A stretch of 64,000 nucleotides of DNA, taken from the NCBI GenBank assembly GCA_963770565.1, contig CAVYQE010000002.1, positions 96,001-160,000 on the forward strand, written 5' to 3'. Of the stretch, positions 43,793 through 62,601 are shown piece after piece. The number at the start of each line of letters is the position of its first letter. Within the stretch, counting starts at the first letter, position 1. The DNA is from an uncultured Actinomycetota bacterium (GTDB lineage: Bacteria; Actinomycetota; Actinomycetes; JAFAQI01). Made by a program: the position numbers and the translations under genes. The notes under the pieces were generated by a model. The model made no database searches and was not told the origin of the DNA. It was given only the letters and a program-made list of their open reading frames with translations.

Positions 43793-43853
43793 CGCTGCTC
43801 CCCACGGTGTGCGATCGCGGACAAACTCGGCGTATCCAGTATGCGGCCCGCCG

Positions 43854-43869: not shown

Positions 43870-43916
43870 CCGCGAGCTGACGGTGGCAATACGGGTCGCT
43901 CGCCACGATCGTGCAC

Positions 43917-44855: not shown

Positions 44856-44943
44856 CCCGCGCACCCATCAACGGCTGAGCGGTGAAACAAGCTGCGGTCG
44901 CCCTGGCCGGCGTACTCGCCGCGGCCCGCGGCTACGAACCCGT

Positions 44944-46131: not shown

Positions 46132-46302
46132 CACGGTCTCCCTCCGTGAGAGGCGGCTTCGCGCCGTGCCCACGGCATCCGACGTCCGCCTCACTGGATC
46201 GTCGCACCTGAGGCCGCGCAGTGGGCGTTCCCCGCCGGGCGCGACTTGCGCGGCGACCTGGCGCGCGCCAGATCCGGAAGCCGAGGGCCGAGAACCGCTC
46301 GC

Positions 46303-46415
46303 GGGTTATCTGGAACGGGTTGGGATTGGCAGGGATCTATCCCGAAATGGGTCAGGGCCATGATCGTTGATCATGGCCCTGACCTAGGGTTTTGCCTCAG
46401 TGGCGAAGGTGGGAT
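46303..46415. mobile_element. att-module copy J1, left part: arm A, terminator hairpin and degenerate tRNA 3' end
   Basis: Collinear with 59579-59690; reverse strand reads ATCCCACCTTCGCCAC versus ATCCTACCCCCGCCAC at J3. Confidence 0.8.
46350..46384. terminator. 16-bp perfect stem-loop
   Basis: GGTCAGGGCCATGATC-GTT-GATCATGGCCCTGACC; same hairpin at 59628-59656. Confidence 0.8.
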
Positions 46416-46420
46416 GCGGG

Positions 46421-46585
46421 TCAGGAACTTGCGCTGCCCTCAGAGTCGGCCGCCTCGGAGGACGTGTCCGATTCAGCCGCCTCGCTTGACTCGGCTGAGT
46501 CCTTCGCGTCCGTTTCCGGACTGTCATCCTCGGTCTCGAATGGGTCCTCTTCAATGGCATTCGGATTTGAGATGCCTTCGGGCAT
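46421..46585 (-). CDS. 54-aa highly acidic Ser/Glu/Asp-rich peptide
   Basis: AAAGGAG RBS 7 nt before ATG; MPEGISNPNAIEEDPFETEDDSPETDAKDSAESSEAAESD... Confidence 0.55.
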   Translation of the reverse strand: MPEGISNPNAIEEDPFETEDDSPETDAKDSAESSEAAESDTSSEAADSEGSASS

Positions 46586-46704
46586 GTTCGGTCTCCTTTG
46601 AGTTTCTCGACGGGTGGCGCAACTGCGTTCCGCGGGTTTGATCATCATGTGCCGCGGCGACGCCGGTGACAAGGATCGGTTTGACGGCGCGGTCTGGACG
46701 GGCT

Positions 46705-46785
46705 GTCTTCCCTTTGCTATCAACAGAATCCCGGCCCCGACCGGCACTGCCGGCAGGGCGTGGATGTCCGCCACTTAGAGGCAGG
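46705..46785. mobile_element. att-module copy J1, right part: diverged arm B
   Basis: TCTTCCCTTTGCTATCAAC...GTGGATGTCCGCCACTTAGAGG aligns by eye with TTTTCCGTGTGTTAGCAAC...GTGGAGGTCCACCATTTAGGGG (59767-59843). Confidence 0.55.
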
Positions 46786-46849
46786 TCAGGGGTGGATCCT
46801 GCTCCGAGATCCGAGACCGGCGTTCTGCGTTGGCTTTGCGTTCGGTGGG

Positions 46850-47931
46850 TTCGGCTGCTCGGGAGGGCTAGCCGAAGCAATGTGCCGCGTGTTGTCTTGG
46901 CCCAAAGCGCTCCGGGGGTGGCCGCGACGATGGCTCCTGTTCCTCGCAGCGAGTGGAGCGGCTGGATGCTGTGGTGGGGTGCGATGCGGAGCAGTCGTCC
47001 GTGAGTGAAGTCGCTGACGTAGGCGGCGCCCTGGTCGTAGGCGATTGTGTCGTCAGCGCCGGCGAACTGCCAGGTTTGCAGGTTCGCTGGGTCCGAGGGT
47101 TGATCGCTATGACGACACTGATGTTGCGCCAGCCGATGTAGGAAGGAGCCGCGACGGGCCCGGAGGCGTACGCCCAGATCAGGCCGCCGCCGCCGGCGAG
47201 CTGGGAGACGTCGAGCTGCCCGCCGCTGCAACGGAAACCGGCCGAACGTGCACTCTGTCGGCGCCGGGAGCGGCGAAGCCGACACCGTCGAGGTCTTCAG
47301 CCACCCAGGTGCCGGATGGCCCCACGATGGTTGTGTTGTTCTCACTCGGGGTTGGCAGCATCGCCACCAGCCGCGAGGTTCGCTGGTCGACCTGCGCGAT
47401 CAAGCCGGCGGGTGAGGACACCCACACGCTCCCCGCCCCCACACTGACGCTGCTGGGATCGAACCGACGGTCGTGCCGGCTGACCCGGACCGGCAGGACG
47501 AGCCGCGTCGTCGTAACGGTTCGCCCGTCTTGCGGGTCGACCCGTGTGAGCGTTTCCGAGAAGGGGTGGGCGAGCCAGATCGCTTCCCCGCCGACGGCCA
47601 GCGACCCGGCGTCGAGGACGGGGAATCGCTTGATGACCAGGCCGGTGCGATCCGCGACCTCGGAGAGCTGCCCGACCATAGGCTGCTCGCCCGTGCAGTC
47701 CCGCACGCAGGACAGCACTCACAACGATCCGGGTGCTGCCGCCGCCGCGATCGTCGCGCCAGCGAGGCTGAGAGGTGTGGTGGTGGTACCGCCTTGCGTT
47801 GGCTGTCCCGACTGGGTCCCGCCGGGGTTGCCGCTCAGCGACCAACCCAGAGCGGCCGCGGCGATCGCTACCAGCGCGATCCCGACGCGGAGGTGGCGGC
47901 GATGCTGACGGCGACGGGCATCCTTGATCAC
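46850..47931 (-). pseudogene. Frameshifted membrane-anchored beta-propeller protein (boundaries approximate)
   Basis: Three consecutive frames: TM anchor (47719-47931), YVTN-like blades LAVGGEAIWL..TRVDP, VSVGAGSVWV (47179-47718), and IAYDQGAAYVSD...GALWA (below ~47180). Confidence 0.6.
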
Positions 47932-47986
47932 CGCCTACCACGGGGCGTCCCACCAGCGACCCGGGTGGACAACTGTCGTGCCTATA

Positions 47987-48005
47987 GAGCTATTGTTACT
48001 AGCAC
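47987..48005. promoter_or_regulatory. YtrA/GntR-type operator
   Basis: GAGCTA-N7-TAGCAC immediately before the gntR ATG. Confidence 0.55.
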
Positions 48006-48006
48006 T

Positions 48007-48354
48007 ATGTTCGGGGTCAAAATTGACCGGACCGGTCCGACCCTGCTGCATGATCAGGTCGCCGCACAGATCCGCCGCGCGATCGCAGAGGGCGAGGCCG
48101 CTCCCGGTGAACGCCTGCCGCCGGCTCGCGACCTCGCGGCCGTTCTCGGGGTGAACACGAACACCGTGCTTCGTGCCTTACGCCTGCTCCGTGACGAGGG
48201 AACCCTAGAGTTCCGACGTGGTCGAGGCATCACCGTCGCCGGCACACCCGACACCAGCACCGTACTCATCAAGGCACGGGAGCTCATCGCTCTAGCGGCC
48301 CACCGCGGCTACCAACGCGACGACCTGATCCGGCTCATCGAGAGCCTGCCCTAG
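48007..48354 (+). CDS. GntR family regulator (YtrA subfamily)
   Basis: LHDQVAAQIRRAIAEG...GERLPPARDLAAVLGVNTNTVLRALRLLRDEG..EFRRGRG. Confidence 0.92.
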   Translation: MFGVKIDRTGPTLLHDQVAAQIRRAIAEGEAAPGERLPPARDLAAVLGVNTNTVLRALRLLRDEGTLEFRRGRGITVAGTPDTSTVLIKARELIALAAHRGYQRDDLIRLIESLP

Positions 48355-48537
48355 CAGCCTCGACCACCCGCCGAGCCCACCCAACAACTCGAACTGGATT
48401 CGCGGACTGAGCGCTGGCGCCCCCGGGGGCGTGACTCGGCCATTTGACCGCGACATCGTTGGAGGCCGGCATGCGTCGCGTCTTGCGCTGCCTTCAGGTC
48501 GGTGGGATGACGCTCGCGCGGCTGGAAAGGGGTCAGC

Positions 48538-48981
48538 TTACGTCGTTGGTGTTGGCAACTGTCGGCCGGAGATCTGTTGGGCCTCAATCTTGACGTAGTG
48601 CGGCAACTCGCTACCGACCCAGCTGTGCATGCTTAGCCGGTCAAGCACGGCGACCTCGTTTGAGTCAGTGACCACGCGGGACGGCCCGACGACGAGGACA
48701 CTCCAACCACGGCGCTGGGCCGGGTCGAGATCGTCAATCTCGAATGCCACGACGGTGCCGTTCAACGCGGCGCTGAGTTTGGTGCCAGGCGCGGTACGGA
48801 ACGTGATCGCGTTGCCCACCAACTGGTAGTTCACCGGAAACGCTGCTGGCAGTGCATCGACGGACAGCACTACCCGCCCAACCGTAGCTAAGGCGAGCAG
48901 TCGACGGCAGTCGGACTCACCGAGTACCAACAGATCAGCAGAGGACAGCACCACCTCATCCAAGGTCATAGTCGGCTGCAC
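48538..48981 (-). CDS. Pyridoxamine 5'-phosphate oxidase-like flavin-binding protein (Rv0080/NimA-like)
   Basis: ECRRLL-type start (DCRRLLA), VGRV, PAAFPVNY, FRTAPGTKL, VAFEID, GWSVLVVG. Confidence 0.88.
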   Translation of the reverse strand: MQPTMTLDEVVLSSADLLVLGESDCRRLLALATVGRVVLSVDALPAAFPVNYQLVGNAITFRTAPGTKLSAALNGTVVAFEIDDLDPAQRRGWSVLVVGPSRVVTDSNEVAVLDRLSMHSWVGSELPHYVKIEAQQISGRQLPTPTT

Positions 48982-48984
48982 GAC

Positions 48985-49002
48985 CAGGGGCGTTAGACCC
49001 TG
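48985..49002. promoter_or_regulatory. Possible DosR/DevR-type box
   Basis: CAGGGGCGTTAGACCCTG; reverse strand GGGTC-TAAC-GCCCC is one mismatch from GGGAC-N4-GNCCC. Confidence 0.35.
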
Positions 49003-49650
49003 CGGCAGTGCCGAGCCCCGACAGCATCAACCAACAGGCGGTAGCCCGGACGGCGCAGCCATCGCTCGCGATCGGCGCTCGGCGCGGCCGCACCGGCACC
49101 GATACTGGTGATATCGACCATTGCGGTCCAAGAGAACACGAGGGCACACATGATGCCGGGCCGAATGGTCACCGTAACCTGCCCGGCATGCCAGACCACG
49201 ACGACCGTGCGATCACGTCGAGGATTCAGCAACTTCGACGACACGCACCAGGTCAGCTGTCAGACCCGGATCGAACCGACCGAGCCCGATCTTGATGTGC
49301 TCCTCGACCTCCCACCCGATGACCATCCCAACCCGGAGCCCGGCCACGACTCGACTCGCGCCGCGAAGAGCGAGCCAGGCGTCCGTCACCCGGGTCGGGA
49401 GGGGCGATTCAGTGAACCGGTTCTGTAGTGGCAACAGATTCAACGACCGGATGGGCGCGCGCTATTGCCACGCGTGCGTTCATCCGGCATTAACCGGACG
49501 GCGTCCTGCCCGCTTGGCAGCATCGTGCTCGACCTCATCGACGGTGTCACGGTCGTGGGTCAGATCGACCCCATGACCCAGGCCGAAAACCTCCAGTGGC
49601 AGTGATTCTCCGATACTTGGAATAATTGAAGATTAGGCTACGATCACGCA

Positions 49651-49986
49651 GTGCCACACAACGCGCGACCAGTGCATGAGGCGAAGGCGAGCCTGTTCCG
49701 GGTGCTAGGCCATCCCGCCCGGATCCGGATCTTGGAGCTGCTTGGTGAGGGTGAGCGATCCGTGGGGGCGTTGCAGGCGGATCTCGGTTTGGATTCCGGT
49801 GGGACGTCGCAGCATTTGGCGGCGTTGCGGCGGGTCGGGGTGGTGCAGTCGCGCCGCGAGGGGACGACCGTGTTCTACCGGGTCGATGACAAGCGGGTGT
49901 TTGATCTGCTCGCTACCGGCCGCGACATCATCACCCGGCGACTCGGTGAGCAGCAGTCGCTGCTGAAGGACCTCGCCAAGTCGTGA
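49651..49986 (+). CDS. ArsR/SmtB regulator, Rv0081-like
   Basis: KASLFRVLGHPARIRILELL..GERSVG...SQHLAALRRVGVV.SRREG; first gene of the hyf/ehr operon. Confidence 0.9.
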   Translation: MPHNARPVHEAKASLFRVLGHPARIRILELLGEGERSVGALQADLGLDSGGTSQHLAALRRVGVVQSRREGTTVFYRVDDKRVFDLLATGRDIITRRLGEQQSLLKDLAKS

Positions 49987-51932
49987 TTGCCGCGCTGTAT
50001 CTCGTCGCCGTCTTCGTGGTCGTGTTTGGTGGGCTGCTGACGCTCGCGCCGGTTCAGTGGCGCCTGGGTCTGGGGGTGCAGGCTGCGGGTGCGGCACTGC
50101 TGGTGGTGGCAGGGCTCGCGACGCTGGTGACCGGGCACACCGTGGGCGCACCGTTCGCGAGCGAGCTTGCGCCGCGTCTGGGTGTCGATCGGCTCTCAGG
50201 TTTGTTCGTTGCCACGCTCGGGTTGGTTGCTGCACCGGTGGCCGTGTATTCGGCGCGTTATCTGGATGGTTCGCCTCGCGATCGTCTTGTGGGGGCTCTG
50301 ACCGGTGGATTCGTGCTGGCGATGGCGGGGGTGCTGTGTGCCCGTGACCCGGTCACGTTGCTCGGCGGCTGGGAGCTGATGACGTTGCTGCCGGCAGTCA
50401 TCATCCTGATCGCTCGCTCGGCGGATCCACACTCACGGCGGACGGTGTTCACCTATCTGGCGATCACTCACCTGGGTGGGGTGGGGACCTGGGTCGCGGT
50501 GCTGCTGCTGGCGGATGCGGGTGCGCTCGGTGGGTCGGGTGTGATCGCGCCGGGCTCGGCGTTGCAGATCGGGATCGCGCTGGCCGCGCTGGTCGGGATG
50601 GGCACGAAGGCGGGTGTCGTGCCGTTGCATGCCTGGCTGCCGCGGGCACATCCGATCGCGCCTGCGCCTGTGTCGGCGTTGATGAGCGGTGTGATGATCA
50701 AGGTCGCGATCTACGCGATGATCCGGGTGTTCATCGACTGGCTCGGGGTGCTCCCGCTGTGGTTCGGGGTCCTGGTCCTCGGTGTCGGCGCGGTGTCCGC
50801 TCTCGGTGGGGTCACCTACGCGCTGTTCAGTCATGAGCTCAAGCGGCTGCTCGCGCTGCATTCGATCGAGAACGTCGGCATCATCGTGCTCGGGCTCGGC
50901 GCCTGTCTGGTGCTGCGAGCCCGGGGGGAGGACACCTGGGCGGCGCTGGCGCTGGCGGCGGCACTGCTGCACACCGTGAACCACGCAGTGTTCAAGGCGT
51001 TGTTGTTCCTCGGCGCCGGATCGATCGAGCGCGCGACGGGATCACTCGAGCTCGACCGCCTCGGTGGGCTGCTACGCCGGATGCCGTGGACCGGGGGCGC
51101 GTTCTTCGTCGGGGCGATGGCGATCAGCGGGCTCCCGCCGTTCAACGGGTTCGCCTCGGAGTGGCTGACACTGCAAGCGCTGCTGCACGTCCCGATGTCC
51201 GGTCATGCCGACGACGGCGTGGCCGGCGCCCTCGCGCTTGCCGCGCTCGGCGGGACCGCCGCCCTGGCGGTGTTCTGCTTCGTAAAGGTGGTCGGGCTGG
51301 TCCTGCTGGGTCCGCCGCGACGCGCCGCGGCCCGCGACGCGCACGAGGTCGCGGTCTCGATGCGGGCAGCGATGGTGGGTCTGGCGGCGGCATGTGTGGT
51401 GCTCGGCGTCGTGCCGGGTCTACTGGTGAGCCGGCTGGTCGCGGTCGCTCCGTGGCCCGTGCATCTCGTGGGTCATCCCGGCCTGTCCGTGCCGGGCACA
51501 GGATCGTTGCCAACCGTGGCCATCGCCGTCGTCCTGGTTGCGGTCACCGCCGGGCTCATTGGCTTACGTGGCCGGCGAGTGGCTGCGCCCGCCGCGACCT
51601 GGGTGTGCGGGCAGCCGGTGGTCGCGCAGCTGAACTGGTCGAGCGCGGGGTTCAGCAAACCGCTGCGGCTGGTGCTGGAGTCCGTGCTGCGCCCGCGCCG
51701 GGAGATTGAGGTACTCACCTCGTCCGCCGGCATCGTCACCGGCGTCTCGTATCACGGTGAGGTACCGAACCTGATCGACGAGCGGGTATACGGGCCGGTG
51801 GCCCGATGGTCACTGACTGGCGCAGCGTACGCGCGCCGGCTGCAGAGCGGAACCCTCGGGACCTACGTGGCGTACCTGATCGGCCTGGTCGTCGCGGTGC
51901 TGGTCGCCGGGCGGATCGGCTGGCTGGGATGA
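49983..51932 (+). CDS. hyfB: HyfB/HycC-like antiporter-type membrane subunit
   Basis: WELMTL, KAGVVPLHAWLPRAHPIAPAPVSALMSGVMIK, KRLLALHSIEN, GLPPFNGFASEW. Confidence 0.88.
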   Translation: MIAALYLVAVFVVVFGGLLTLAPVQWRLGLGVQAAGAALLVVAGLATLVTGHTVGAPFASELAPRLGVDRLSGLFVATLGLVAAPVAVYSARYLDGSPRDRLVGALTGGFVLAMAGVLCARDPVTLLGGWELMTLLPAVIILIARSADPHSRRTVFTYLAITHLGGVGTWVAVLLLADAGALGGSGVIAPGSALQIGIALAALVGMGTKAGVVPLHAWLPRAHPIAPAPVSALMSGVMIKVAIYAMIRVFIDWLGVLPLWFGVLVLGVGAVSALGGVTYALFSHELKRLLALHSIENVGIIVLGLGACLVLRARGEDTWAALALAAALLHTVNHAVFKALLFLGAGSIERATGSLELDRLGGLLRRMPWTGGAFFVGAMAISGLPPFNGFASEWLTLQALLHVPMSGHADDGVAGALALAALGGTAALAVFCFVKVVGLVLLGPPRRAAARDAHEVAVSMRAAMVGLAAACVVLGVVPGLLVSRLVAVAPWPVHLVGHPGLSVPGTGSLPTVAIAVVLVAVTAGLIGLRGRRVAAPAATWVCGQPVVAQLNWSSAGFSKPLRLVLESVLRPRREIEVLTSSAGIVTGVSYHGEVPNLIDERVYGPVARWSLTGAAYARRLQSGTLGTYVAYLIGLVVAVLVAGRIGWLG

Positions 51933-52853
51933 CCGCGGCGAACGTCGCGAGCGGCGCGGTCGAGCTTCTCGGCGGCATCGCGGTTGCGCCGCTGCTGCCG
52001 GGTCTTGATCCAGCACTGGAAGGCGAGGCTGCAGGGCCGGCGCGGACCCTCGCCGGTTCAGCCCTACCGGGAGCTACGACGGCTCTGGCGCAAGAGCGTC
52101 GTCGACGTCGCGGGCACCACCGCGGTCTACCGGCTGGTACCGGCCGTCGTCGCGGCCAGCTGTCTCGCCGCAATCGCGGTGGTGCCGGTCACTGCGGCCG
52201 CTCCAGACCTCGGTCTCGGTCATGACCTGATCACGGTCGTTGGCCTGCTGGCGTTGGCCCGGTTCGCTGCCGCGGCCGGCACCTGGGACGCCTCGAACGG
52301 GTTCGCATTGATGGGAGCGAGCCGTGACCTCACGCTGTCGGTGTTCGTCGAGGCGGCGTTGCTGCTGGCGCTCGCGGTCGTCGCCGTACTGGCCAGGACC
52401 ACGAACCTGGTGGGGATGGTCGCGGCCAGCGCTGGTGGCGGGGTGTGGTCGAGCCCGGCCCTGCCGCTCGGCGCGGTCGCGTTCGCGATCGTGGTCGTCG
52501 CCGAGACCGGCCGGCAGCCCTTCGACAACCCCGACACCCATCTCGAGCTGACCATGATCCATGAAGGCCCGCTGCTGGAGTACGCGGGCCGTGACCTCGC
52601 CTATCTGCAGTGGTCAGCCGCCGTGCGGCACTGGCTGGTTCTGGTGCTCGCCGCACAGCTGTTCGTGCCGCATCCGAGGAACGTCTGGTGGCAGCTCGGG
52701 TTGCTGCCGGTCGTGCTCGTGGTGCTGTGCGGCGCGCTGGCGCTGGTCGAGACGGTACAGGTGAAGATGCGGATCTTGGCCGCCCCGCGGCTACTCGCGG
52801 TCGCCGCGGTGGCTGCAGTTCTCGGTGTGGCCGGTCAGGCCGGTGGCTGGTGA
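51929..52853 (+). CDS. hycD: HyfC/HycD (NuoH-like) membrane subunit with one frameshift near 52004
   Basis: ATG 51929 gives MTAANVA...APLLPG; the +1 frame continues LIQHWKARLQGRRGP, ETGRQPFDNPDTHLELTMIHE. Confidence 0.8.
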
Positions 52854-53461
52854 CTGGCGCTGCGGGGTGGCTGCTCGTCGCGCTCGGGCTCGGCGTGGTC
52901 GTGGTACGCCGACGGTCGGTCGCGGTCGGATTGGTCACGGTGCAGGCGCTGGTGGTCGCTGTGACTGCGCTGGTCGACTCCGCTTCGACGAGTGAGGTGG
53001 TCGCCGGGCTGACCCTCGCCGTGCGGGCGGTCGCGCTCGGCGTGCTGTTCCTGCTCGCGGTCTCCCGCAGCCGGGAAGCTCAACCGGTGCGCGCCCGGGT
53101 GCCACCCACGGTCCGGGTGGGCATCGCCGTGGTGCTCATGCTGGTGCTGACCGAGTTGGTGCCGGCGTACGGGCTCACCTCACGCTCGGCCGAGCGATCG
53201 GTGCTCGCGCTGGTCGCAGCGGGTCTGGTGTGCGCCGCGACCAGGCGGGCCACGCTGTTCCAGGTACTCGGGATCGTGGTGGTTGACAACGGGTTGGCGC
53301 TGGCCGCCGTCACCTCGCCGCACACCTCGTCGCTGGTAATCGAGCTCGGGGTGACCCTCGACCTCACCCTGATCGTCTGTGTCGCCGCCCTGTTCCACCT
53401 CCGGATCTTCACCGAGTTCGGCGCCGGCGACAGCGCAGCAATGCGGAGACTGCGTGACTAG
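52850..53461 (+). CDS. hyfE: HyfE-like membrane subunit
   Basis: Multi-TM; QVLGIVVVDNG, IELGVTLD; GTGA coupling with the upstream gene. Confidence 0.8.
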   Translation: MTGAAGWLLVALGLGVVVVRRRSVAVGLVTVQALVVAVTALVDSASTSEVVAGLTLAVRAVALGVLFLLAVSRSREAQPVRARVPPTVRVGIAVVLMLVLTELVPAYGLTSRSAERSVLALVAAGLVCAATRRATLFQVLGIVVVDNGLALAAVTSPHTSSLVIELGVTLDLTLIVCVAALFHLRIFTEFGAGDSAAMRRLRD

Positions 53462-54917
53462 CACCCAAACGCTGGCCGTGACGGTTGTGGCAGTCCCGCT
53501 CGCCACGGCGGCGCTCGTCGGGCTGGTCCCAGTGAGTCGGCTCCGCATGGTCGCGCGGGTCGGCGCGGTCGCGACCTCGATCCTCGCGCTGACCCTGGCC
53601 GGTCTCGCCGGGCACGCCGCCGCCCGTCCGGTCACCGGGCGGTGGATCGTCATCGACGCCGCCGGTGCACTTCTCCTCGCCGTAGTGGCTGTCGTCGGTC
53701 TAGCGAGCGTGCTGACCTCGTCGTCCTACCTGAGCAGCGCGGGTGGGTCGTTGGTCGCCGAGCACCGTCGCGACCGGGTGTACTACCTGGTCTTGCTGGT
53801 GTTCTGGGCGATCCTGCTGGCGGTGCCACTGGCCGGCAACCTCGGAGCGGCGTGGCTGCTGATCGAGGCAACCACCGCCGCGTCAGCGATGCTGGTCGGG
53901 TTCAGCGGGAAGGCTCACGCGCTTGAGGCGGGCTGGAAATACCTGATCCTCACCTCGCTCGGGCTCGGTGTCGCGCTGCTCGGGATCGCGATCCTCGCCG
54001 CCGGCGACCATAGCGGTGGGATCGACGGGCTGGCCTGGGCCCGGCTCGCGACGGTCGGGTCCGGGCGTTCGGTGATCCTGACGGCCTACCTGCTGGTGAT
54101 GGTCGGACTGGCCACCAAGATCGGATGGGCACCGGTGCACAACTGGCTGCCCGACGCCCACTCCGAGGCGCCACCACCAGTCTCCGCGCTGCTGTCCGCC
54201 GCTCTGCTCCCGACCGTCCTGCTGGTTGCCTGGCGAACCGAGCACGCGTTGGCACCGGTACTCGGAATCCATGCCGCGCAACGGGTCCTGATCGGGTTCG
54301 GGCTGGTCTCGCTTGCGGTCGCGGTGCCGTTCCTGTGGCGGCCGATGCCGTTCAAGCGGCTGCTCGCCTACTCCAGCCTGGAACACCTCGGGGTCATGGC
54401 GCTCGGGATCGGGTTCGGCACCCCGCTCGCGCTGACCGGGGTCGCCGTACACATCGCCGGTCACGCGGTCGCCAAATCGCTCGGCTTCTACGCCGCCACC
54501 CCGCTGCTCAGCCACGAGCCCCGCGCCGCCCGGCACGCCGTCAGCGGGATCGGACGCACCTCGCCCGCGCTCGGCGCCACCATCGGCATCTCTCTCGGGG
54601 CGCTGTCCGGGCTACCGCCCTCACCGCTGTTCGTCAGCGAGGTGCTGATCCTCGCCGGCGGAGTCGCCTCCGGCCGGCCGTGGCCCGCCGCCATCGCCGC
54701 AGTGCTGCTTGCGCTGGGGTTCCTCGGACTCGCGCACGCCGGCATCGACACCGTCGCCGGCCGCCCACACCGCCGGCGGCACCGCGCGCCGACCGGCCTG
54801 CGCGCGGTCACCGTCCTCGCCGGCGCATCGCTTGTCCTGCTGGCCGGGCTCGCCGCGGCGGCACCCTGGCTGTCCGGCGGTAGCTTCGTCGCCGCTCTCG
54901 TCCGGGGCGTGCCATGA
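53454..54917 (+). CDS. hyfF: HyfF-like antiporter-type membrane subunit
   Basis: IEATT, LEAGWKY, TKIGWAPVHNWLPDAHSEAPPPVSALLS, KRLLAYSSLEH. Confidence 0.88.
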   Translation: MTSTQTLAVTVVAVPLATAALVGLVPVSRLRMVARVGAVATSILALTLAGLAGHAAARPVTGRWIVIDAAGALLLAVVAVVGLASVLTSSSYLSSAGGSLVAEHRRDRVYYLVLLVFWAILLAVPLAGNLGAAWLLIEATTAASAMLVGFSGKAHALEAGWKYLILTSLGLGVALLGIAILAAGDHSGGIDGLAWARLATVGSGRSVILTAYLLVMVGLATKIGWAPVHNWLPDAHSEAPPPVSALLSAALLPTVLLVAWRTEHALAPVLGIHAAQRVLIGFGLVSLAVAVPFLWRPMPFKRLLAYSSLEHLGVMALGIGFGTPLALTGVAVHIAGHAVAKSLGFYAATPLLSHEPRAARHAVSGIGRTSPALGATIGISLGALSGLPPSPLFVSEVLILAGGVASGRPWPAAIAAVLLALGFLGLAHAGIDTVAGRPHRRRHRAPTGLRAVTVLAGASLVLLAGLAAAAPWLSGGSFVAALVRGVP

Positions 54918-56323
54918 CAGCCGCCCCGCTTACTGGCGCCGAGTACCGCGCCGAGGTCGAGACCGCCCTCGACGACGGATGGCGGCCCCGGAGCCTGTAC
55001 GCGACCGAAGGCGGACGGCTGATCCGCCTGCTGCTGACCGGGCCCGACGGTCAGACCCGGCTTTCCACCGTCGAGGTCGACCCTGACCGGGGTGTCCCGT
55101 CAATCGTCGACCTGGCGCCGGCGATGGGCTGGGACGAACGGGAAGCCCATGACCTCTACCGGGTGCAGTTCGCCGGTCATGAACCGATCCGGCCGTTGGT
55201 CGACCACACTGCGGCGCTGGACGCATGGACTGTGCCGGTCCGTGGGCGTGACCCCTATCAGGTTGCGGTCGGCCCCATCCACGCCGGGGTGATCGAGTCC
55301 GGGCACTTCCGGTTCCATGTCGTCGGCGACCGGATCCTGCATCTGGACGCCCAACTGTTCTACAAACACCGCGGCCTCGAACGCGCCGCGGAAGGGCTGA
55401 CCGCAACCGCGGCGCTCCCCGTCGTCGCGCGGGCCTGCGCCGCGTGCACCGTCGCGAACAGCGTCGCGTTCGCCACCGCGACTGAAAACAGCCTCGGACT
55501 TCGAGGCACCGACGAGCTCACCCGGGCACGGACCCTGCTTCTCGAACTGGAGCGAGTATGGAACCACCTCAACGACATCGCCGCGATCTGCGCCGGAACC
55601 GGGATGGCCGCCGGCAACAGCTACTTCCTCGCCCTCACCGAACGCGCCCGGGCACTCAACGCCCGAGTCACCGGCCACCGGTTCCTGTTCGGTGCGGTCC
55701 AGATCGGAGCCAGCGACTTGCATCTCGACCCCGACACCCACCGGATGTGTGCGCAGGAACTGGACGCGATGCGTGTCGCCGCGGACGCCGGCTGGCGTGA
55801 CCTTGAGTTCAATACTTCCTTCCAGGACCGGCTCGACAAGATCGGGATCATTGATGCGGCCAGCGCGCACCGGCTCGGCGTGGTCGGCCCAGCCGCCCGC
55901 GCCGCCGGCGTCGCCGACGACGCCCGGGCCACCTCCACGTACCCCGCCTATGCCGACCTGGTCCCGGTCACCGCAGCGATCGCGACCGGTGACGTGAATG
56001 CCCGGGCCACCCAGCGGATCCTCGAGCTCCGACAATCATTCGACCTGATCACGGCGGTGCTCACACACGGACCGATCACCCCCAGCATCGCCGCCAACGA
56101 CAACGGCCCCACTCCGATCGGAGCCGGAATGACCGAAAGCCCACGCGGCGCCACCAGCTGCATCTGCGAATACACCAACCACAAACTGCAGCGAGTGCAC
56201 CTACGGACCGGCTCCTACGCCAACTGGCCGGCCGTTGCGCACGCCGCCACCGGCAACCTGCTCCCCGACTTCCCGCTGATCAACAAGAGCTTCGAGCTCT
56301 GCTACGCCTGTGCGGACCGCTGA
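54914..56323 (+). CDS. hycE: HycE/HyfG-like (NuoC-D fused) large subunit with both CxxC motifs
   Basis: WDEREAHDL, GPIHAGVIESGHFRF, HRGLE, RACAAC, ELERVWNHL, ESPRG, SYANW, DFPLINKSFELCYACADR*. Confidence 0.88.
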   Translation: MTAAPLTGAEYRAEVETALDDGWRPRSLYATEGGRLIRLLLTGPDGQTRLSTVEVDPDRGVPSIVDLAPAMGWDEREAHDLYRVQFAGHEPIRPLVDHTAALDAWTVPVRGRDPYQVAVGPIHAGVIESGHFRFHVVGDRILHLDAQLFYKHRGLERAAEGLTATAALPVVARACAACTVANSVAFATATENSLGLRGTDELTRARTLLLELERVWNHLNDIAAICAGTGMAAGNSYFLALTERARALNARVTGHRFLFGAVQIGASDLHLDPDTHRMCAQELDAMRVAADAGWRDLEFNTSFQDRLDKIGIIDAASAHRLGVVGPAARAAGVADDARATSTYPAYADLVPVTAAIATGDVNARATQRILELRQSFDLITAVLTHGPITPSIAANDNGPTPIGAGMTESPRGATSCICEYTNHKLQRVHLRTGSYANWPAVAHAATGNLLPDFPLINKSFELCYACADR

Positions 56324-56796
56324 TGTTCACCCTGCTCCGCGACCTCCGACAGCTTCGACGACACCTCGACCTGCCCCGCCCCGACCGTGGCCGCAGCCTC
56401 GCGATCCGCCACGTCGACGCCGGATCATGCAACGGCTGCGAACACGAACTCTCCCTTACCGCCGGCCCGCACCACGACCTGCAACGCTTCGGCCTCGGGA
56501 TCGTCGCCTCACCCCGACACGCCGACCTCCTGCTCGTCACCGGCACCGTCACCACCCGGATGCACCAAGCGCTACTCACTGCCCACCAAGCAATGCCCGA
56601 ACCACGCCGCGTCGCCGCCCTCGGCAACTGCGCCCTCGGCATCAACGTCTACGCCCAGCCCGGCACCCTCATCGGACCCGTCGCCGACATCCTGCCCGTC
56701 GACCTCACCATCCCCGGTTGCCCACCCACACCCCAGCAGATCGCGGAAGGATTACTCACCCTTCTCGACCGAGACCGCTCGGGTGCCTCCCGCTAA
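56323..56796 (+). CDS. HycG/HyfI (NuoB-like) Fe-S small subunit
   Basis: GSCNGCE, SPRHAD, GNCA, IPGCPP. Confidence 0.9.
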   Translation: MFTLLRDLRQLRRHLDLPRPDRGRSLAIRHVDAGSCNGCEHELSLTAGPHHDLQRFGLGIVASPRHADLLLVTGTVTTRMHQALLTAHQAMPEPRRVAALGNCALGINVYAQPGTLIGPVADILPVDLTIPGCPPTPQQIAEGLLTLLDRDRSGASR

Positions 56797-56840
56797 CCGG
56801 CCGGTGCAGCGATGCGACAGCGAAACGCGCGCGCACGTGG

Positions 56841-57045
56841 TGGGTCATGTGGAACTTGCAGGCAATGGTAGGAATTGATCTTGAAAAAGCAGCCAGGCCA
56901 TGATCGGAATCCAGCGGACCTTTTCCGTTTGTTACCAACGTTTTGCCTGGCACTGGCCGGCATCCACAGGCACCGGGGGGAGGTCCACCTTTTGGGGGCC
57001 CAGTAGGGAACATGACCCTCCAGGTGAAAGGAGCGCTGTCGTGGC
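56841..57045. mobile_element. att-module copy J2: arm A fused to arm B, tRNA core deleted, ends at the integrase start codon
   Basis: 56841-56905 aligns with 59578-59640 and 56906-57045 with 59751-59892, including AAAGGAG and GTGGC. Confidence 0.88.
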
Positions 57046-57081
57046 AGAAACCACTCATCGGGGCCAGCGACCGGGAATGCG

Positions 57082-57738
57082 TCAACCGCGTTCGGCTGGT
57101 GCACGCCTGAAAAGGGGCGGGAGGTAGCGCACCATCAGCGCCGACCAGGTGAGATGTGTGAGCATTGGTGCCTGCACGCCGCCCGATATCCGGCGCTCCC
57201 ACGCAAACAGCGTTCCCATCACCGCAGAGGCAAGCACCAGCGCGGAGTTCTTCGTTGCGGTTGTGGCCAACACGTAGCCCGCGGTGGAGACCACGACCGG
57301 GTTGTATGTCCCTGCGGCGGTGTAGAGCGCGCCGCGGAAGAACAGCTCTTCGGCGGCGCCGTTCGCGAGTGCGGTGAGCATGACGAGCCGGTTTGATCCT
57401 TGGTGGGCGTACTGCAGGATCGACGTGAGCGCCTCGTTGAGGACTGGGGCACGGCGCGCCACGAGCGCACCACCGTAAAAGGCGGCGAAGGCACCGGCCC
57501 CGACGAGGACGGGCACGACCACCGGTCCGAGTCCACCCGAATTCTCGGGCTGAGGATTGAAATGCATTGCTCCCGAGCTCAGCCCGCCGACCGTCCAGAC
57601 CGACGCGACTCCGAGAGTCAGGGCGTAGAACTCCACCGAGTCCGGCTCGGTCGACAACGACAAGCCGAGAAGACCGACACCCGCGACGCCAGCCGCGGCG
57701 ACTCTGCGGCGCGGATGCCGAAGTCCTCCGACGGTCAC
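57082..57738 (-). CDS. CPBP (Abi/CAAX) intramembrane glutamic endopeptidase
   Basis: AEELFFRG and HLTWS motifs; multi-TM. Confidence 0.88.
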   Translation of the reverse strand: MTVGGLRHPRRRVAAAGVAGVGLLGLSLSTEPDSVEFYALTLGVASVWTVGGLSSGAMHFNPQPENSGGLGPVVVPVLVGAGAFAAFYGGALVARRAPVLNEALTSILQYAHQGSNRLVMLTALANGAAEELFFRGALYTAAGTYNPVVVSTAGYVLATTATKNSALVLASAVMGTLFAWERRISGGVQAPMLTHLTWSALMVRYLPPLFRRAPAERG

Positions 57739-58640
57739 TTGCGCCTCGCTCTCGCACGCTCACCCAATGCGAGCAGCACCGCAGCGTCATAACCCATCGG
57801 TTCGAACGGCACCAGCGCACGGATACCGTCGTCACGGACCACAACTTCGTTGCTCATCGAGTCGATTAGCGATCGGCCAGTCTGAACATCGACGTCGGTC
57901 ACGAGCGAGAGCCACCACGACGACAGCGATGGACTGAGCAGGGGTACCGGGATCACCATGGTGTGTCGTCCCTCGATGAGGGCAACGCGGCGCATCATCT
58001 CGACGTACTCCAGAACCTCCGGGCCGCCGATGTCGAAAGTTCGTCCCCGTGCCTCCGGCAGTTCCAGGACACCGACCAGATAGCGGATCACGTCGTCCAC
58101 AGCGATCGGCTGAGTCTTGGTTCGTACCCAACGCGGCGTGATCATCGCGGGCAGATGTTCGACGAGCTGGCGGGTCATCTCCCAGGAGATCCCACCGTGC
58201 CCGACGATGATGCCCGCGCGCAACGTGGTGACCGGAACCCCCGCCGACCCAAGAAGTGTCTCGACCTCTCGCCGGCTACGCAGATGGGCCGACAACGCGT
58301 CCTTGTCGTCGCCGAGACCACCAAGGTAGACGATCCGATCCACACCCACCTCGGCCGCGCAGCGTCCAAACACGCGCGCACCGGCCGCATCGAGATCAGC
58401 GAAGTTCACGGCGTCGAGAGCATGCACGAGGTAGTACGCACACTCACATCCACCCATCGCCGCTAGGAGGGAGGCAGCGTCATCGACATCGCCCCGCACC
58501 GCGGTCCCCGCACCCCGATAGGCGTCAGGACGACGCGTCATCGCCCGCACCTCGTAGCCGGCACCGACCAGAGCCGAGGACAGCCGACCACCCACGAACC
58601 CCGACGCGCCAGCCACCAGCACCCTCACGATCCAGGTCAT
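57735..58640 (-). CDS. NAD(P)-dependent atypical SDR (YbjT-like)
   Basis: VLVAGASGFVGG, AYYLVH, IVYLGGLG, SAHLRSRREVE, TQPIAVDDV. Confidence 0.9.
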   Translation of the reverse strand: MTWIVRVLVAGASGFVGGRLSSALVGAGYEVRAMTRRPDAYRGAGTAVRGDVDDAASLLAAMGGCECAYYLVHALDAVNFADLDAAGARVFGRCAAEVGVDRIVYLGGLGDDKDALSAHLRSRREVETLLGSAGVPVTTLRAGIIVGHGGISWEMTRQLVEHLPAMITPRWVRTKTQPIAVDDVIRYLVGVLELPEARGRTFDIGGPEVLEYVEMMRRVALIEGRHTMVIPVPLLSPSLSSWWLSLVTDVDVQTGRSLIDSMSNEVVVRDDGIRALVPFEPMGYDAAVLLALGERARARRK

Positions 58641-58754
58641 CCCCATCTGTTCCCGCCGCACACCCCTAGGCACCGAAAGCAGCGAGCGTCCTTGCTTCGA
58701 TGCTCTGGCCGCCGACGGGTACGGGCCCAGCCGCACCAACGCCAGCCGCCCGGT

Positions 58755-58794
58755 GCCCAGTAGGGAACGATGACCCTCCAGGTGGCAAGGGGCG
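58755..58794. repeat. att-module fragment J2b (integrase leader/RBS segment)
   Basis: GCCCAGTAGGGAACGATGACCCTCCAGGTGGCAAGGGGCG, 37/40 identical to 59843-59882. Confidence 0.85.
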
Positions 58795-58811
58795 ACCGGC
58801 CGGCTGTCGGC

Positions 58812-59355
58812 TCAGGACGTGGAGAACTCCACACCGTCCAGGCTTACCGGACCCGGCTGGAAAGTCGGCCTCCACGAAGCCCTTCTTGTCGATGAACAGG
58901 GCCCCGAACTCGTCAGAGCCATTCATATTCACCGTGAGCCATTTGAAGGCGTCCGGGCGGGCGTTCTTCGGCAGGGTGAATGCGACCGTCGCGCTGAGAC
59001 CACCTGTCATTACGCCCTGGAGGTGCACTATCCCCTGAGCGTCCACTGCGTAGGACGGGACGTCGTAGTAAACCGTGGAGTACACCACCCAGGGGTTCTG
59101 CAGCGCCAGCTTGTGCCAAACCAGCTTCGGCAACGTCTTCGCCTCCGGCACGACACCGAGCGTCGACTCCTTGACCTGCTTACCGGTGACCGTATTGTTC
59201 TTCAACCGGTTCCCGGCGATCGAATGCTCTTTGATCGTGCTTCCGTTGACCTTGCTGGAGATCTGGTGCGCTGCGGCTGGCGCCTCGAGACCTATCGCCA
59301 GCGCTACCACGGCGACGAGAAAGGTTCCCGACGGCTTGATTCTGCGAATGTTCAT
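58812..59355 (-). CDS. Secreted protein with a phage-fibre-like C-terminal beta domain; probable frameshift near 58862
   Basis: GGAGG + ATG; signal peptide; GIVHLQG...AFTLPKNARP; removing one T gives DFQPGPVSLDGVEFSTS*. Confidence 0.65.
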
Positions 59356-59627
59356 CGTGACCTCCAAGGCAGGCTCGGTACCGGGACAAGGCATCAGCAC
59401 CAACACCGGGTAGACCGCGGCCGTATCGGCGTACCTCCCGGTCGCGCCCATCCTCCCGGTATCCCGATATCGAAGACAACCCCACCACCGCCGCCGGTAC
59501 GACGTAGTGGGTGACCTACCCGGAGGAGTACTCCGGCAGCTGCAACACCGTCGGCTGCGAACGGAGGCTTGGACCTCTGGGTCATGGGAACGGTTAGGAA
59601 ATGGTAGGGATTGATCGTGAAAAGCAG

Positions 59628-59656
59628 CAGGGCCATGATCGTTGATCATGGCCCTG
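59628..59656 (-). terminator. Terminator hairpin downstream of the tRNA fragment
   Basis: 13-bp stem CAGGGCCATGATC-GTT-GATCATGGCCCTG; minus strand followed by CTGCTTTT. Confidence 0.75.
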
Positions 59657-59674
59657 ACCTGCGGTCTTGCCTAG

Positions 59675-59716
59675 TGGCGGGGGTAGGATTTGAACCTACG
59701 ACCTCTGGGTTATGAG
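59675..59716 (-). tRNA. 3' half of initiator tRNA-Met(CAT); att core fragment, not a functional tRNA
   Basis: Minus strand CTCATAA-CCCAG-AGGTC-GTAGG-TTCAAAT-CCTAC-CCCCGCCA: anticodon loop, variable loop, T arm and 3' acceptor strand. Similarity stops exactly at the 5' edge of the 7-nt anticodon loop. Confidence 0.9.
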
Positions 59717-59887
59717 GGCTGCGACCAGCCGGTAGTGACTGGCGGTGACCGGAATCCAACAGAGTTTTTCCGTGTGTTAGCAACGGTTTCCCTGGCACTG
59801 GCCGGTATCCACAGGCACCGGGTGGAGGTCCACCATTTAGGGGCCCAGTAGGGAACGATGACGCTCCAGGTGGAAAGGAGCGGCCTC

Positions 59888-60106
59888 GTGGCTTACGTCC
59901 GGAAGAAGACCCGCAAGGACGGCACCATCCGCTGGTATGCCCGTTACCTGGGCACCGATGGCCGCTACCACGAAGAAGGCGGCCACCCGTCCAAGCTCGC
60001 GGCCGCGCGTAGGGCTCGTAATGAGTCCGTAAGACACTGGGCCGCGGGCCCCGATGGCTCAACTGATGACGAGGCCGACCGGTGGTGTCCCAGCCCGGCA
60101 GGCTGA
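59888..60106 (+). pseudogene. Truncated tyrosine integrase (N-terminal arm-binding domain only)
   Basis: GGAAAGGAG + GTG; VAYVRKKTRKDGTIRWYARYLGTDGRYHEEGGHPSKLAAARRA; adjacent to the att core; no catalytic domain follows. Confidence 0.75.
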
Positions 60107-60124
60107 TCGGCGACTCCAACGCGG

Positions 60125-61976
60125 TCAGATGGCCGCCGTTGACTGCGAAGCGGCTAATGACGAGCACGCCTCCGGCCGGGCATCAGCGGTGTTAGGTGAT
60201 TGGAGCCGGCTGCTGTAGGTCTGCAGGATGTCGTGGTGGTTGACCCACCCGACGAGTCGAAAGCCGTCGCTGGACACCACTGGTACTCCGGTCGTGTCAC
60301 GGCCGATCAGCGTTTGGACCACTTCATGCAGTGACTGCGTCGCGCGCACGGTGGGCAGCGAGCGGGCCAAATCGCCCGCGGTCGCGTCGGCAGGGCCCTC
60401 CGCTAGCGATTGCTCCTAACTCCTGGGGGTCACCGTGCCGCGGTAGCGACCGTCGACATCGATCACCGGTAGCGCTTCGCGGGCCTCCGTCGGTGAAGCG
60501 CTTGACGATTTGCTCGAGCGGATCGGCTGAGGAGAGCGCGACCGGCACGGGCTGCATCGCGTCGCTGACGGTCAAAGTGCGCATCAGGTTCTCGGGTCGG
60601 CCGCGAGCGATGTCGATGCCTCGACGGCGCAGTTTGAGCGTGTAGATCGTGTCCTTGGACAGCCTGCCGCTGACGGCGGTCGCGAGCACGATCGCGACCA
60701 TCAGCGGCAGGACAATCGTGTAGTCGCCGGTGAGCTCGAAGATGATCAGCACCCCGGTGATCGGTGCACGGGTCGCGCCGGCGAACACCGCGCCCATCCC
60801 GACCAGGCCGTAAGCGCCGGCTGGACGCGGCAAGGTGCGGGCAGGACCTGATGCACACCGTCGCCGTAGGCGGTGCCGAGCATCGCTCCGATGAACAGCG
60901 ACGGGGCGAACACCCCGCCGGAGCCGCCGATGCCGATGGTGAGGCTGGTCGCGACCATCTTCCCGATCGAGCAACACGATCAGGAACCACACGACATAGT
61001 GGCCGGCGACGCCCGTTTTCCAGGATCGGGTAGCCGACGCCGTACATCTCCGGCAACGCCAGCATCAGACCGCCGAGCAGGACCCCGCCGGTGGCGGGCC
61101 GCAGCCATATCGGGCCGCGCCAGACCCGGTCGCAGATGTCCTCGATGCCGTAGAGCACCTCGGATGAACCCGACCCCACCGGCGGCTGCGAGCACCCCGA
61201 GAACGGCGTAGAAGGCGATACTCGACCGGCGGAGTGCACCGATGAACGGCGGGGAGCATCAGGAACGGATGGTTCCCGAAGGCGGCCCGGCCGATCACGT
61301 CGGCGGTAACCGAGGCAAGGACCACGGCGCCGAAGGACTCGGTCTCGAAATCACGCAAGATCAGCTCGAGGGCGAAGAACACCCCGGCGATCGGTGCGTT
61401 GAACGTCGCGGAGATTCCGCCAGCAGCACCGCAGGCGACCAGCAGCCGCAGCCGGGACTCCGGCACCCGCAACCACTGCCCGATGCTCGACCCGAGCGCG
61501 GACCCGATCTGCACGATCGGTCCTTCCCGTCCTACCGAACCTCCGGACCCGATGCACAGCGCGGAAGCCAGGGACTTCACGATCGCGACCTGCGGAGCGA
61601 TCCGCCCACCCCGTTCGGAGACGGCGAGCATCACCTCAGGCACACCGTGACCGCGGGCTTCCTTGGCGAACCGGTCCACGATCGGCCCGTAGATCAGCCC
61701 ACCGATCACCGGCACTAGCAGCACGAAGTAGATCCCCAACACGGGGAAATGCGGGCTCGCGACATGCCCCGCGTCGCTGTAGTCGGAACGCCCGGTGAAC
61801 ACCTCAGTGAACCCCAGGATCAGGTAGCGGAAGCCGACCGCGCCACCGCCGGCACCAGCCCCGGTCACCACGGCCAGCGCCATCAGACCAGCCGCCGAAC
61901 CGCGCAGCCAGTCCAGCACGCGGATCGCCGGCTCGCGTGGCAGTCGCAATGTCCCACCGTGCGCCGACACCCTCAT
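60125..61976 (-). pseudogene. ClC chloride/proton antiporter with CBS pair, split by multiple frameshifts
   Basis: [33 protein letters not shown] and CBS domains spread over at least six frame segments. Confidence 0.88.
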
Positions 61977-62004
61977 ACCGGCTCCGCGAGATGAGCACCC
62001 GTTG

Positions 62005-62493: not shown

Positions 62494-62503
62494 CTAACGA
62501 TTA

Positions 62504-62516
62504 TTGCATAGTGCAA
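62504..62516. promoter_or_regulatory. Probable MarR operator
   Basis: TTGCA-TAG-TGCAA 10 bp upstream of the marR start. Confidence 0.55.
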
Positions 62517-62601
62517 GGGTTTTGGTGGCTGGTGAGCGTAGCGCCGGCGGCGCCCGACACGATCGAAGAGGCGGCCCTGGCCTTCGGCCTGGCCCTTGCG
62601 G

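Follow-up and report, generated by a model that had tools for sequence, protein, structure and literature searches.

The 64,000-nt stretch of DNA analysed in this study (the window, G000:C2:96001-160000) belongs to the assembly G000 of an uncultured Actinomycetota bacterium, which comprises 4.43 Mb in 11 contigs at 67-70% G+C and is 94.9% complete. Towards its right end, a non-coding module built around the 3' part of an initiator methionine tRNA gene (tRNA-fMet) recurs in one orientation between blocks of unrelated genes (E1, E2, E2b and E3). This array is very probably the fossil of a tandem accretion, in which small cargo islands were gathered at a single initiator tRNA-Met gene by a tyrosine integrase of the lambda type. 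The first-pass annotation of this DNA had proposed that related elements with tyrosine integrases inserted serially at a single tRNA-fMet, and this is well supported by an intact tRNA with a fifth junction copy, by family integrases beside the same tRNA fragment and by relatives that vary at this locus. Read in this way, the array is a mostly immobilised fossil left by a known way of gathering foreign genes, and not a gene-capture device.

Positions 59560-59900, which cover most of the best copy (J3), were compared with the whole assembly by blastn. Matches were found to J4, which lies outside the window (C2:163659-163821; 90% over 163 nt, E 8e-60), to the two arms of J2 (arm B, 56901-57045, 87% over 147 nt, E 1.6e-43; arm A, 56841-56906, 83% over 66 nt, E 2e-10), to J1 (46312-46415; 81% over 104 nt, E 3e-20) and to J2b (58752-58797; 89% over 46 nt, E 7e-10). 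All lie on the plus strand inside 21.5 kb of contig C2, and blastn found no complete module elsewhere in the assembly, so that the copies are not scattered genome-wide, a pattern that would have spoken against the first-pass proposal. Repeat-finding within the window recovered the same copy pairs. The module repeats are real and far above chance expectation. Aligned to J3, J4 is identical at 158/177 positions (89%), J2 arm B at 131/152 (86%) and J2 arm A at 82/112 (73%); divergence is greater in the copies farther from the tRNA. The earlier claim of four copies of a module of about 320 bp holds for the recurrence and the common orientation, but only J3 is complete, and J1, J2 and J2b are partial copies in the orientation of J3.

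J3 (59556-59892) is the sole complete junction, with arm A, hairpin, tRNA fragment, arm B and integrase start in that order. Its arm A (59556-59627, plus strand) contains a fossil second tRNA core at 59572-59586 and three GGGAA-like direct repeats. The stem of the hairpin (59628-59656, minus strand) is 13 bp long and, read in the sense of the tRNA, is succeeded by CTGCTTTTCA; beyond the hairpin lies a 42-nt tRNA-Met 3' fragment, the attachment (att) core, which runs from the acceptor end to the anticodon loop with the anticodon CAT (59675-59716, minus strand). Arm B (59717-59887, plus strand) ends in a GGGAAC repeat and a ribosome-binding site and is 86-89% identical to J2 and J2b and 87% identical to a copy in a relative (G004:C11). 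The integrase stub (59888-60106, plus strand) opens with a GTG start codon and holds the first 40-48 or so codons of a tyrosine integrase of about 370 aa, after which unrelated sequence leads to a stop. No tRNA gene was called in the window by ARAGORN, as expected of a fragment. Rfam searches of the junction regions at the gathering threshold returned only the tRNA itself, and at E up to 1 over 44000-64000 they gave one sub-threshold chance match.

The other copies have lost most of this structure. J1 (46303-46415, plus strand) consists of an arm A with a partial fossil core, a hairpin (46353-46381) that is an exact 29-nt copy, and a tRNA-Met 3'-end remnant of about 15 nt (46401-46415); it contains no crossover core, arm B or integrase and runs directly into a small acidic-protein gene. 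The extent formerly given to it, 46303-46785, was too long, as 46416-46700 is that gene and not an arm B. J1 is the outermost and presumably the oldest junction remnant. At J2 (56841-57045, plus strand), arm A (56841-56905) is joined to arm B (56906-57045) by a deletion of about 110 nt that removed half of the hairpin, the tRNA fragment with the core, and the beginning of arm B, and no integrase follows. Two independent soil-metagenome contigs (X2 56755-57224 and X1 56804-57031) bridge J2, which is therefore not an assembly artefact. J2b (58752-58797, plus strand) is a lone 46-nt integrase-proximal end of arm B, with a GGGAAC-type repeat and a degenerate ribosome-binding region. The arm-B ends of J2, J2b and J3 differ pairwise at 3-5 positions. 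The fossil core in arm A of J3 is identical at 15/15 positions to the tRNA core in J4, and within J3 this core and arm A align to the core and arm B, with about 35 nt past the fossil core corresponding to the beginning of arm B (32/49 in all; E 0.009 in a small search, which lends modest support). The beginning of arm A may therefore be a still older junction whose element was wholly deleted and which was later carried along as part of the arm. No further junction or integrase remnant was found in the window by tblastn with three integrases or by a relaxed tRNA-fragment search, the best extra match having E 0.22 near 17.8 kb.

An intact minus-strand tRNA-fMet beyond the 64-kb limit had been predicted, and it was found. 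The tRNA-Met(CAT) gene lies on the minus strand at L001:3771-3845, equivalent to window positions 67771-67845, and abuts the arm A of J4 and an identical hairpin; J4 begins about 3.7 kb past the window end. The 42-nt tRNA 3' parts of J3 and J4 are 100% identical and on the same strand, so that the segment between them is bounded on one side by the intact tRNA and on the other by a directly repeated copy of the tRNA 3' part. Of three CAT tRNAs in the assembly, this one alone combines a non-Watson-Crick 1:72 position with three G-C pairs beside the anticodon loop. A 1:72 mismatch and a GGG/CCC anticodon stem are hallmarks of the bacterial initiator tRNA, and the label tRNA-fMet is therefore correct.

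The hairpin of J3 matched an intrinsic-terminator scan (fold -28.6 kcal/mol, z -3.69) and is placed downstream of the tRNA 3' end, where it would be expected to terminate transcription of tRNA-fMet. In G000 it adjoins one intact tRNA only, out of 62. In the relatives, a hairpin was found after the intact tRNA-fMet in 8 of the 11 loci read, with the 29-nt sequence identical in five of the eight; compensatory stem variants occur in G001, in G014 and in a displaced copy in G019. As the hairpin has been copied with each junction in G000, it is part of the load of the incoming elements, whatever its first origin.

The stub connects J3 to a family of tyrosine integrases. By BLASTP, 33 of its 37 aligned residues (89%) are identical to the N-terminus of P0001, a protein of 370 aa, and by tblastn it is 81% identical to a family integrase over 48 residues; P0001, P0004 and P0006 are full-length and carry both PF14659 and PF00589. 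The statement that arm-B similarity stops at or just past the integrase start thus applies to J2 and J2b but not to J3. The catalytic domain PF00589 had no match in the window. No cognate full-length integrase was found in G000, where tblastn with the stub recovers only the stub itself, and five other integrase matches in this assembly are 28-33% identical to P0001. A search of 36 genomes of the bacterial family (G000 included) recovered four full-length close relatives at 48-68% identity, and five full-length integrase loci, one of them on the metagenome contig L027, were inspected. A full integrase starting like the stub, which had been expected, was thus located in relatives and metagenomes but is absent from the assembly itself.

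In four of the five loci (G019:C60, G044:C40, G047:C30 and L027) a tRNA-fMet 3' fragment lies about 190-230 nt upstream of the integrase start, and its boundary is at GGGTTATGAG, the same place in the anticodon loop as in J3. Complete genes with PF00589 and PF14659 stand beside this fragment in the three genomes G019, G044 and G047, while in the fifth locus, G008:C133, the fragment comes from a different tRNA. Because the stub matches a full-length family at the same tRNA-fMet boundary, J3 is a standard junction of that family. The family appears to recombine in the anticodon loop of the initiator tRNA.

Just before the integrase start, every subfamily carries short direct repeats, two or three in number, of a GGGAAC/GGAAC type in G000, G019 and L027 and of an ACGGACG type in G044, G047 and G008. 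The repeats of the GGGAA type are candidate arm-type sites of a lambda-like integrase, a role that would fit the conserved N-terminal domain. The neighbours of the full-length integrases are signalling, transport and defence-like genes, with an Xis-like gene of the HTH_17 kind in G047, and no conjugation or virion genes were seen near them in the assembled parts. Contigs carrying P0001 relatives in the scans of genomes and metagenomes were short only (L027-L029 among them), and a C-terminal piece of a related integrase occurs in a metagenome-assembled genome (MAG) labelled Pseudonocardia sp. Decay by internal deletion was observed in P0002, a metagenome protein of 199 aa in which the first 46 or so residues are fused in frame to about the last 45, with loss of the catalytic domain. 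A different integrase, of 404 aa and 28% identical to P0004, lies by the intact tRNA-fMet of G001 (L018:4099-5310, G001:C120) with an Mrr-type nuclease gene as cargo; since it sits at the same tRNA-fMet, no fewer than two integrase families in the genus make use of this tRNA. A literature search for tRNA-fMet as a bacterial attachment site (attB) returned nothing specific, the term match concerning phage-borne tRNA genes.

The genome collection consists mostly of fragmented assemblies of 2.4-4.1 Mb. The module query had matches in 34 of 41 genomes (G032 counted in), and these reflect mainly the conserved tRNA signal. Four genomes belong to the same genus (completeness 96, 84, 55 and 92%), and the right flank with the intact tRNA is assembled in two of them, G001 and G004. 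To the right of the tRNA-Met, which is followed by an intact UPF0182 gene (973 aa), at least 10 kb are syntenic with these two genomes at 76-79% identity. Despite the shared right flank, the DNA after the hairpin in both is unrelated, and neither stretch has a match anywhere in G000, so that what follows the tRNA differs between relatives, a comparison that had been suggested earlier; in G004 other genes follow, with no integrase detectable by the queries used. The initiator tRNA-Met locus may be regarded as an insertion hotspot in the genus.

G004 also contains, on contig C11, an arm-B end followed by a longer family integrase that is frameshifted and truncated at about residue 185. A ClC-MarR block as in E3 lies 2.4 kb after this remnant at 84.5% identity, and a 20-residue match to the C-terminus of a family integrase (75%, E 2e-4) lies 1.7 kb upstream. 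The closest relative, G003, has segments roughly 86-96% identical to those of G000 in the order acidic-protein gene, M20 peptidase gene, CPBP-SDR unit, 110 nt, arm A, hairpin and mutated tRNA fragment, after which about 15 nt of arm B lead into a Zn-dependent dehydrogenase gene. Its homology to G000 begins at 46415. G003:C73 contains the CPBP-SDR unit (57035-58755) at 93.7% identity, set between other flanking sequences, and the secreted-protein gene of E2b is absent between the SDR gene and arm A both in G003 and in a rhizosphere contig, which shares the G003-type joint from SDR gene to hairpin (58720 to 59628, side 92, X4). As G003 shares the J3-type junction, this junction predates the split of G000 and G003 and has been vertically inherited and eroded differently in each lineage.

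The sequence of integration and deletion events that best accounts for these observations would be as follows. An incoming element would carry its attachment site (attP) in the order arm A, terminator hairpin, tRNA 3' part, core, arm B and integrase gene, and crossover would take place in the anticodon-loop region of the initiator tRNA-Met. Each integration would rebuild the tRNA from element DNA and displace the earlier junction outward, giving the present order J1, E1, J2, E2, J2b, E2b, J3, E3 (with the integrase stub) and J4 (with the intact tRNA). Later deletions would have removed the integrases and most cores and so fixed E1, E2 and E2b in the chromosome. Under tandem integration, inner junctions are composed of arm A, tRNA 3' part, core and arm B, and the last of arm A and the intact tRNA; J2 and J3 fit the former pattern and J4 the latter. 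The unrelated blocks are all separated by att repeats in one orientation (J1, J2, J2b, J3 and J4). Since J1, J2 and J2b lack the anticodon-loop core, E1, E2 and E2b do not lie between usable att sites, and E3 is the only integrase-less unit between an intact attL and attR.

Several observations weigh against this account. Without an empty site in the relatives, neither the limits of the inserted DNA nor the status of the J1 arm A, as native flank or as part of an older element, is fixed; none was recovered when the left flank (38000-57000) was compared with the four same-genus genomes and the best places were read, and synteny with relatives is already gone left of J1. Composition does not distinguish the blocks, as GC is 0.60-0.76 throughout and a composition scan showed no step in GC or skew at the junctions. 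The hairpin and the proximal arm A follow the intact tRNA in those 8 of 11 relatives' loci even in other families, and could therefore be an ancestral host flank that was copied by the elements, and not element DNA. The relatives are largely fragmented MAGs, in which chimeric joins could cause some of the differences in context. The extra base that this assembly has at 60487, and likewise at 63209, is missing from near-identical soil contigs, and some of the gene breaks in E3 may therefore be assembly errors or very recent changes. Finally, the copies of arm B in J2 and J2b break off only a few bases from the position of the integrase start, and both breakpoints of the CPBP-SDR unit recur in G003. 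If a longer ancestor underwent two deletions independently, this would explain the J2b, or right, breakpoint with no need of coincidence, but the left one (57029-57035) less well.

There is a slender chance that the array is not wholly dead, in the sense that E3 (about 8 kb) is still cis-mobilisable, that composite accreted units travelled as single elements, and that the GGGAAC-type repeats which flank the CPBP-SDR unit, being those of the integrase-proximal arm-B end, served as secondary sites for the swapping of single genes between relatives. E3 is the sole block between two intact att cores (J3 and the intact tRNA) and could at most act as a cis-mobilisable element, provided that a related one brought in a functional integrase. 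If the compound arm A is read as holding a collapsed older junction, it would follow that accreted composites moved as single elements.

Less probable again is an actively capturing, integron-like array, in which integrase-less blocks were moved in trans with the integrase-proximal end of arm B as the cassette site. The shared left breakpoint of the CPBP-SDR unit is the main residue that favours it. This unit is flanked by two copies of the arm-B end (J2 and J2b), the segment with J2b and the secreted-protein gene behaves as an indel relative to G003 and the rhizosphere contig, and the CPBP-SDR unit, an NHL-repeat gene and an M20 peptidase gene all differ in context between G000 and G003, their breakpoints lying 20-50 nt away from the ends of the genes. 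For Dehalococcoides, islands that lack an integrase and stand between att repeats have also been discussed as possible cis-mobilisable elements (PMC3146451). Such trans-mobilised cassettes, which had been suggested for this array, are nevertheless not borne out. J1, J2 and J2b have no core at the place where all four inspected full-length members linked to tRNA-fMet have their tRNA boundary, and the assembly holds no cognate integrase, its other integrases being at most 33% identical to P0001. No common motif, and nothing attC-like, was found among the eight block boundaries in G000 and their eight counterparts in G003. As the arm-B ends differ from one another at several positions, none is the recent product of another. 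Gene number per block ranges from one to roughly twelve, both strands are used and the blocks have regulators of their own; loss of the integrase by deletion has parallels in P0002 and in the frameshifted and truncated copy of G004. The J3-type junction of G003 has its arm B cut about 15 nt past the core. No joint between junctions was seen in the contigs assembled from four metagenome runs (X1-X4) over 46000-64000, which is weak evidence as contigs drop rare forms.

Integrons possess an IntI gene, an attI site and a cassette promoter at their head, with an attC site at each boundary between promoterless single-ORF (open reading frame) cassettes. Like arrays of the class 1 type, the present one is one-directional and combines unrelated genes with a recurring non-coding element beside a tyrosine-recombinase start. 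It differs in having no IntI-type gene, no attC-like palindrome at the block ends and no promoterless single-ORF cassettes, and its recurring element is a tRNA att junction. The only trace of a recombinase, the stub of the PF14659/PF00589 kind, lies inside the array and not at its head.

A single integration followed by duplication in situ, through unequal recombination or segmental duplication with later insertions between the copies, appears slightly more improbable still. The copies are close together and in the same orientation, and arm A contains an internal paralogue of the core and proximal arm B, so that a local duplication or collapse has occurred. However, no cargo is duplicated between blocks, and the copies are 73-89% identical and not near-identical. 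Tandem integration of related attP sites would give just the A-core-B order present at J2 and J3, and separate intact elements exist at this tRNA in other family genomes.

A dispersed repeat of the kind of miniature inverted-repeat transposable elements (MITE) or repetitive extragenic palindromes (REP), or an assembly artefact, with no link to integration, can hardly be entertained, for although a 30-nt palindromic motif of the hairpin recurs at six other places in the genome, it is this motif alone that does so and not many copies of the module in both orientations, complete or near-complete modules occur here only and on one strand (as the whole-assembly blastn had already indicated), part of a tRNA and the beginning of an integrase gene are included in the module, J2 is spanned by independent metagenome contigs, and among the six other sites the copy at C1:419472 lies directly after a displaced tRNA-Lys fragment and that at C11:798399 about 230 nt after an integrase fragment.

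The motif itself, GCAGGTCAGrGcCATGATCAACGATCaTG, was found nine times in G000, at C1:419472, at C11:798399, 803541 and 813123, at C8:12828, at C10:170406 and in J1, J3 and J4. The displaced fragment beside C1:419472 is the 3' end of tRNA-Lys(TTT). Three of the copies belong to a repeat family of about 100 nt within 15 kb, where an integrase fragment, an HTH_17 gene, a DDE transposase and a Fic gene were also seen. The motif may be a common end-motif of several integrative elements.

Tandem accretion at a small-RNA gene has been described before, and the array is another instance of what is already known from Dehalococcoides, Prochlorococcus and streptococci. In Dehalococcoides, islands stand in tandem at ssrA, the gene for transfer-messenger RNA (tmRNA), with direct repeats of its 3' end between them, some without integration genes (McMurdie et al., 2011; PMC3146451). 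As there, the blocks of this study lie in tandem at one essential small-RNA gene, with a conserved sequence by the repeats, in a region that varies between strains, and some units lack an integration module, a state discussed for Dehalococcoides as cis-mobilisable or fixed. The systems differ in that the Dehalococcoides islands have a tmRNA target, a serine recombinase and a 20-bp repeat (PMC3146451), whereas here the target is the initiator tRNA, the enzyme an arm-binding tyrosine integrase and the junction about 165-330 nt, with the integrases all lost or truncated.

The tycheposons of Prochlorococcus are cargo elements with tyrosine recombinases at tRNAs, and the preprint takes a partial tRNA between neighbours as a sign of successive integrations, and fragmented integrases with extra partial tRNAs as older events, foreign DNA accumulating far from the tRNA (Hackl et al., bioRxiv 10.1101/2020.12.28.424599). 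In those tRNA islands newer arrivals displace older ones outward, and the gradient of identity found here agrees with this (bioRxiv 10.1101/2020.12.28.424599). The phylum and the integrase family are different, and circles and excision were demonstrated experimentally there; the present array has no intact element left.

E3, between J3 and J4, fits the description of a cis-mobilisable element (CIME) as far as sequence can tell, whereas E1, E2 and E2b have no usable att sites. Streptococcal elements of the ICESt1 type, among the integrative and conjugative elements (ICEs), reportedly give rise to accretion and to CIMEs, that is, integrase-less units between attL and attR that remain once the recombination module has been deleted; when a related element arrives, it is said to integrate beside a CIME and to move it along, the origin there being a conjugative ICE and the locus fda (work of Pavlovic and co-workers from 2004). 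No transfer genes were seen here or in the inspected full-length relatives.

The array involves no new mechanism, as the same logic is known in the three systems just named. What it shows, in a high-GC soil lineage that has been little studied and is represented mostly by MAGs, is one essential tRNA acting as a landing pad for the entry and subsequent fixation of accessory genes, in this case a hydrogenase-like respiratory operon together with transporters and regulators. It also provides an integrase family whose attP layout can be recognised and whose target is mapped to the anticodon loop of the initiator tRNA, which should aid the annotation of islands in related genomes.

The cargo was labelled by Pfam searches, which upheld the labels given previously except that the secreted protein is encoded on the minus strand and not the plus. 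Block E1 (46416-56840, 10.4 kb, mixed strands) contains the acidic-protein gene, two ORFs without a family, a GntR regulator, a Pyridox_ox_2 gene, an ArsR-type helix-turn-helix regulator and a hydrogenase-like operon. The acidic-protein gene occupies about 46424-46588 on the minus strand, and the gene stretch 46416-46700 is also present in G003 in another context. The operon, intact over 6.8 kb (49983-56796), comprises six genes of the hydrogenase-4 or complex-I-like type (group 4). Its large subunit was found in none of the four same-genus genomes and in 4 of 31 other family genomes, all at 40% identity or less, and among the best 40 candidates per genome no DNA match to the operon was found in the four same-genus genomes. 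By this distribution, the cargo of E1 is accessory. Over 48538-56796, the Pyridox_ox_2 gene and the ArsR-type regulator precede the six-gene operon; this layout resembles the mycobacterial Rv0080-Rv0087 region, the Pyridox_ox_2 gene being Rv0080-like.

Block E2 (57046-58751, minus strand) consists of an Rce1-like CPBP protease gene (57082-57738) and a gene for an NmrA/SDR-type NAD(P)-binding protein (57735-58739). Block E2b (58666-59355, minus strand) holds a single gene for a secreted protein with a signal peptide (59355 to 58669), whose reading frame continues through J2b. It belongs to a paralogous family, for which G000 alone has eight matches; with G000 counted, 9 of 36 family genomes have matches; comparison of the C-termini of the paralogues neither supported nor opposed a truncation of the gene by J2b. 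A plus-strand ORF at 58819-59514 was rejected as a gene because its translation is arginine-rich nonsense.

Block E3 starts at 60107, runs to the window end at 64000 and continues to about 67658 in window-equivalent positions (about 7.8 kb in all). Its genes in the window, all on the minus strand, are ClC (60185-62102), MarR (62005-62493) and zwf (62373-63783), and beyond the window lies a P-type ATPase in three pieces. The ClC gene (Voltage_CLC) shows local frame slips, with a frameshift close to 60487 and an internal TGA in frame at 61065-61067, and zwf (G6PD) lies in two frames.

Short contigs near-identical to this DNA are present in soil and rhizosphere metagenomes, and in one run search the best metagenome run contained at most 0.21 of the sampled words. 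Relative to these contigs, single-base indels were noted at window positions 46914, 47080, 47227, 52003, 56687, 56884, 60487 and 63209, with a two-base indel at 63328. Two of these sites fall where ClC and zwf seem to be frameshifted, a hint that some indel errors persist in the assembly. Metagenome joints whose sides measured 20-27 nt were regarded as spurious, and loose contig ends at 59716 proved to be intact tRNA-fMet genes of other organisms, with three differences from that of G000.

Two single genes shared with G003 were observed in addition. The M20 peptidase gene at C1:812050-813506 of G000 is 96% identical to that of G003 (L017:10518-11974) in unrelated contexts, with breakpoints about 28 nt past the stop codon and about 45 nt upstream of the start codon; the cause may be either a genuine movement of the single gene or a chimeric MAG contig. 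At 44944-46194 of the window, on the minus strand, lies an NHL-repeat (beta-propeller) gene with about six tandem repeats of 129 nt (43 aa) at 62-74% identity, which is single in G003, 92% identical and in another context, beside DNA that is found on contig C10 of G000. On C10 itself, a c-di-GMP-II-GAG riboswitch aptamer was recognised on the minus strand at 171206-171335 (L021:6206-6335), scoring 48.4 bits against a gathering score of 40.

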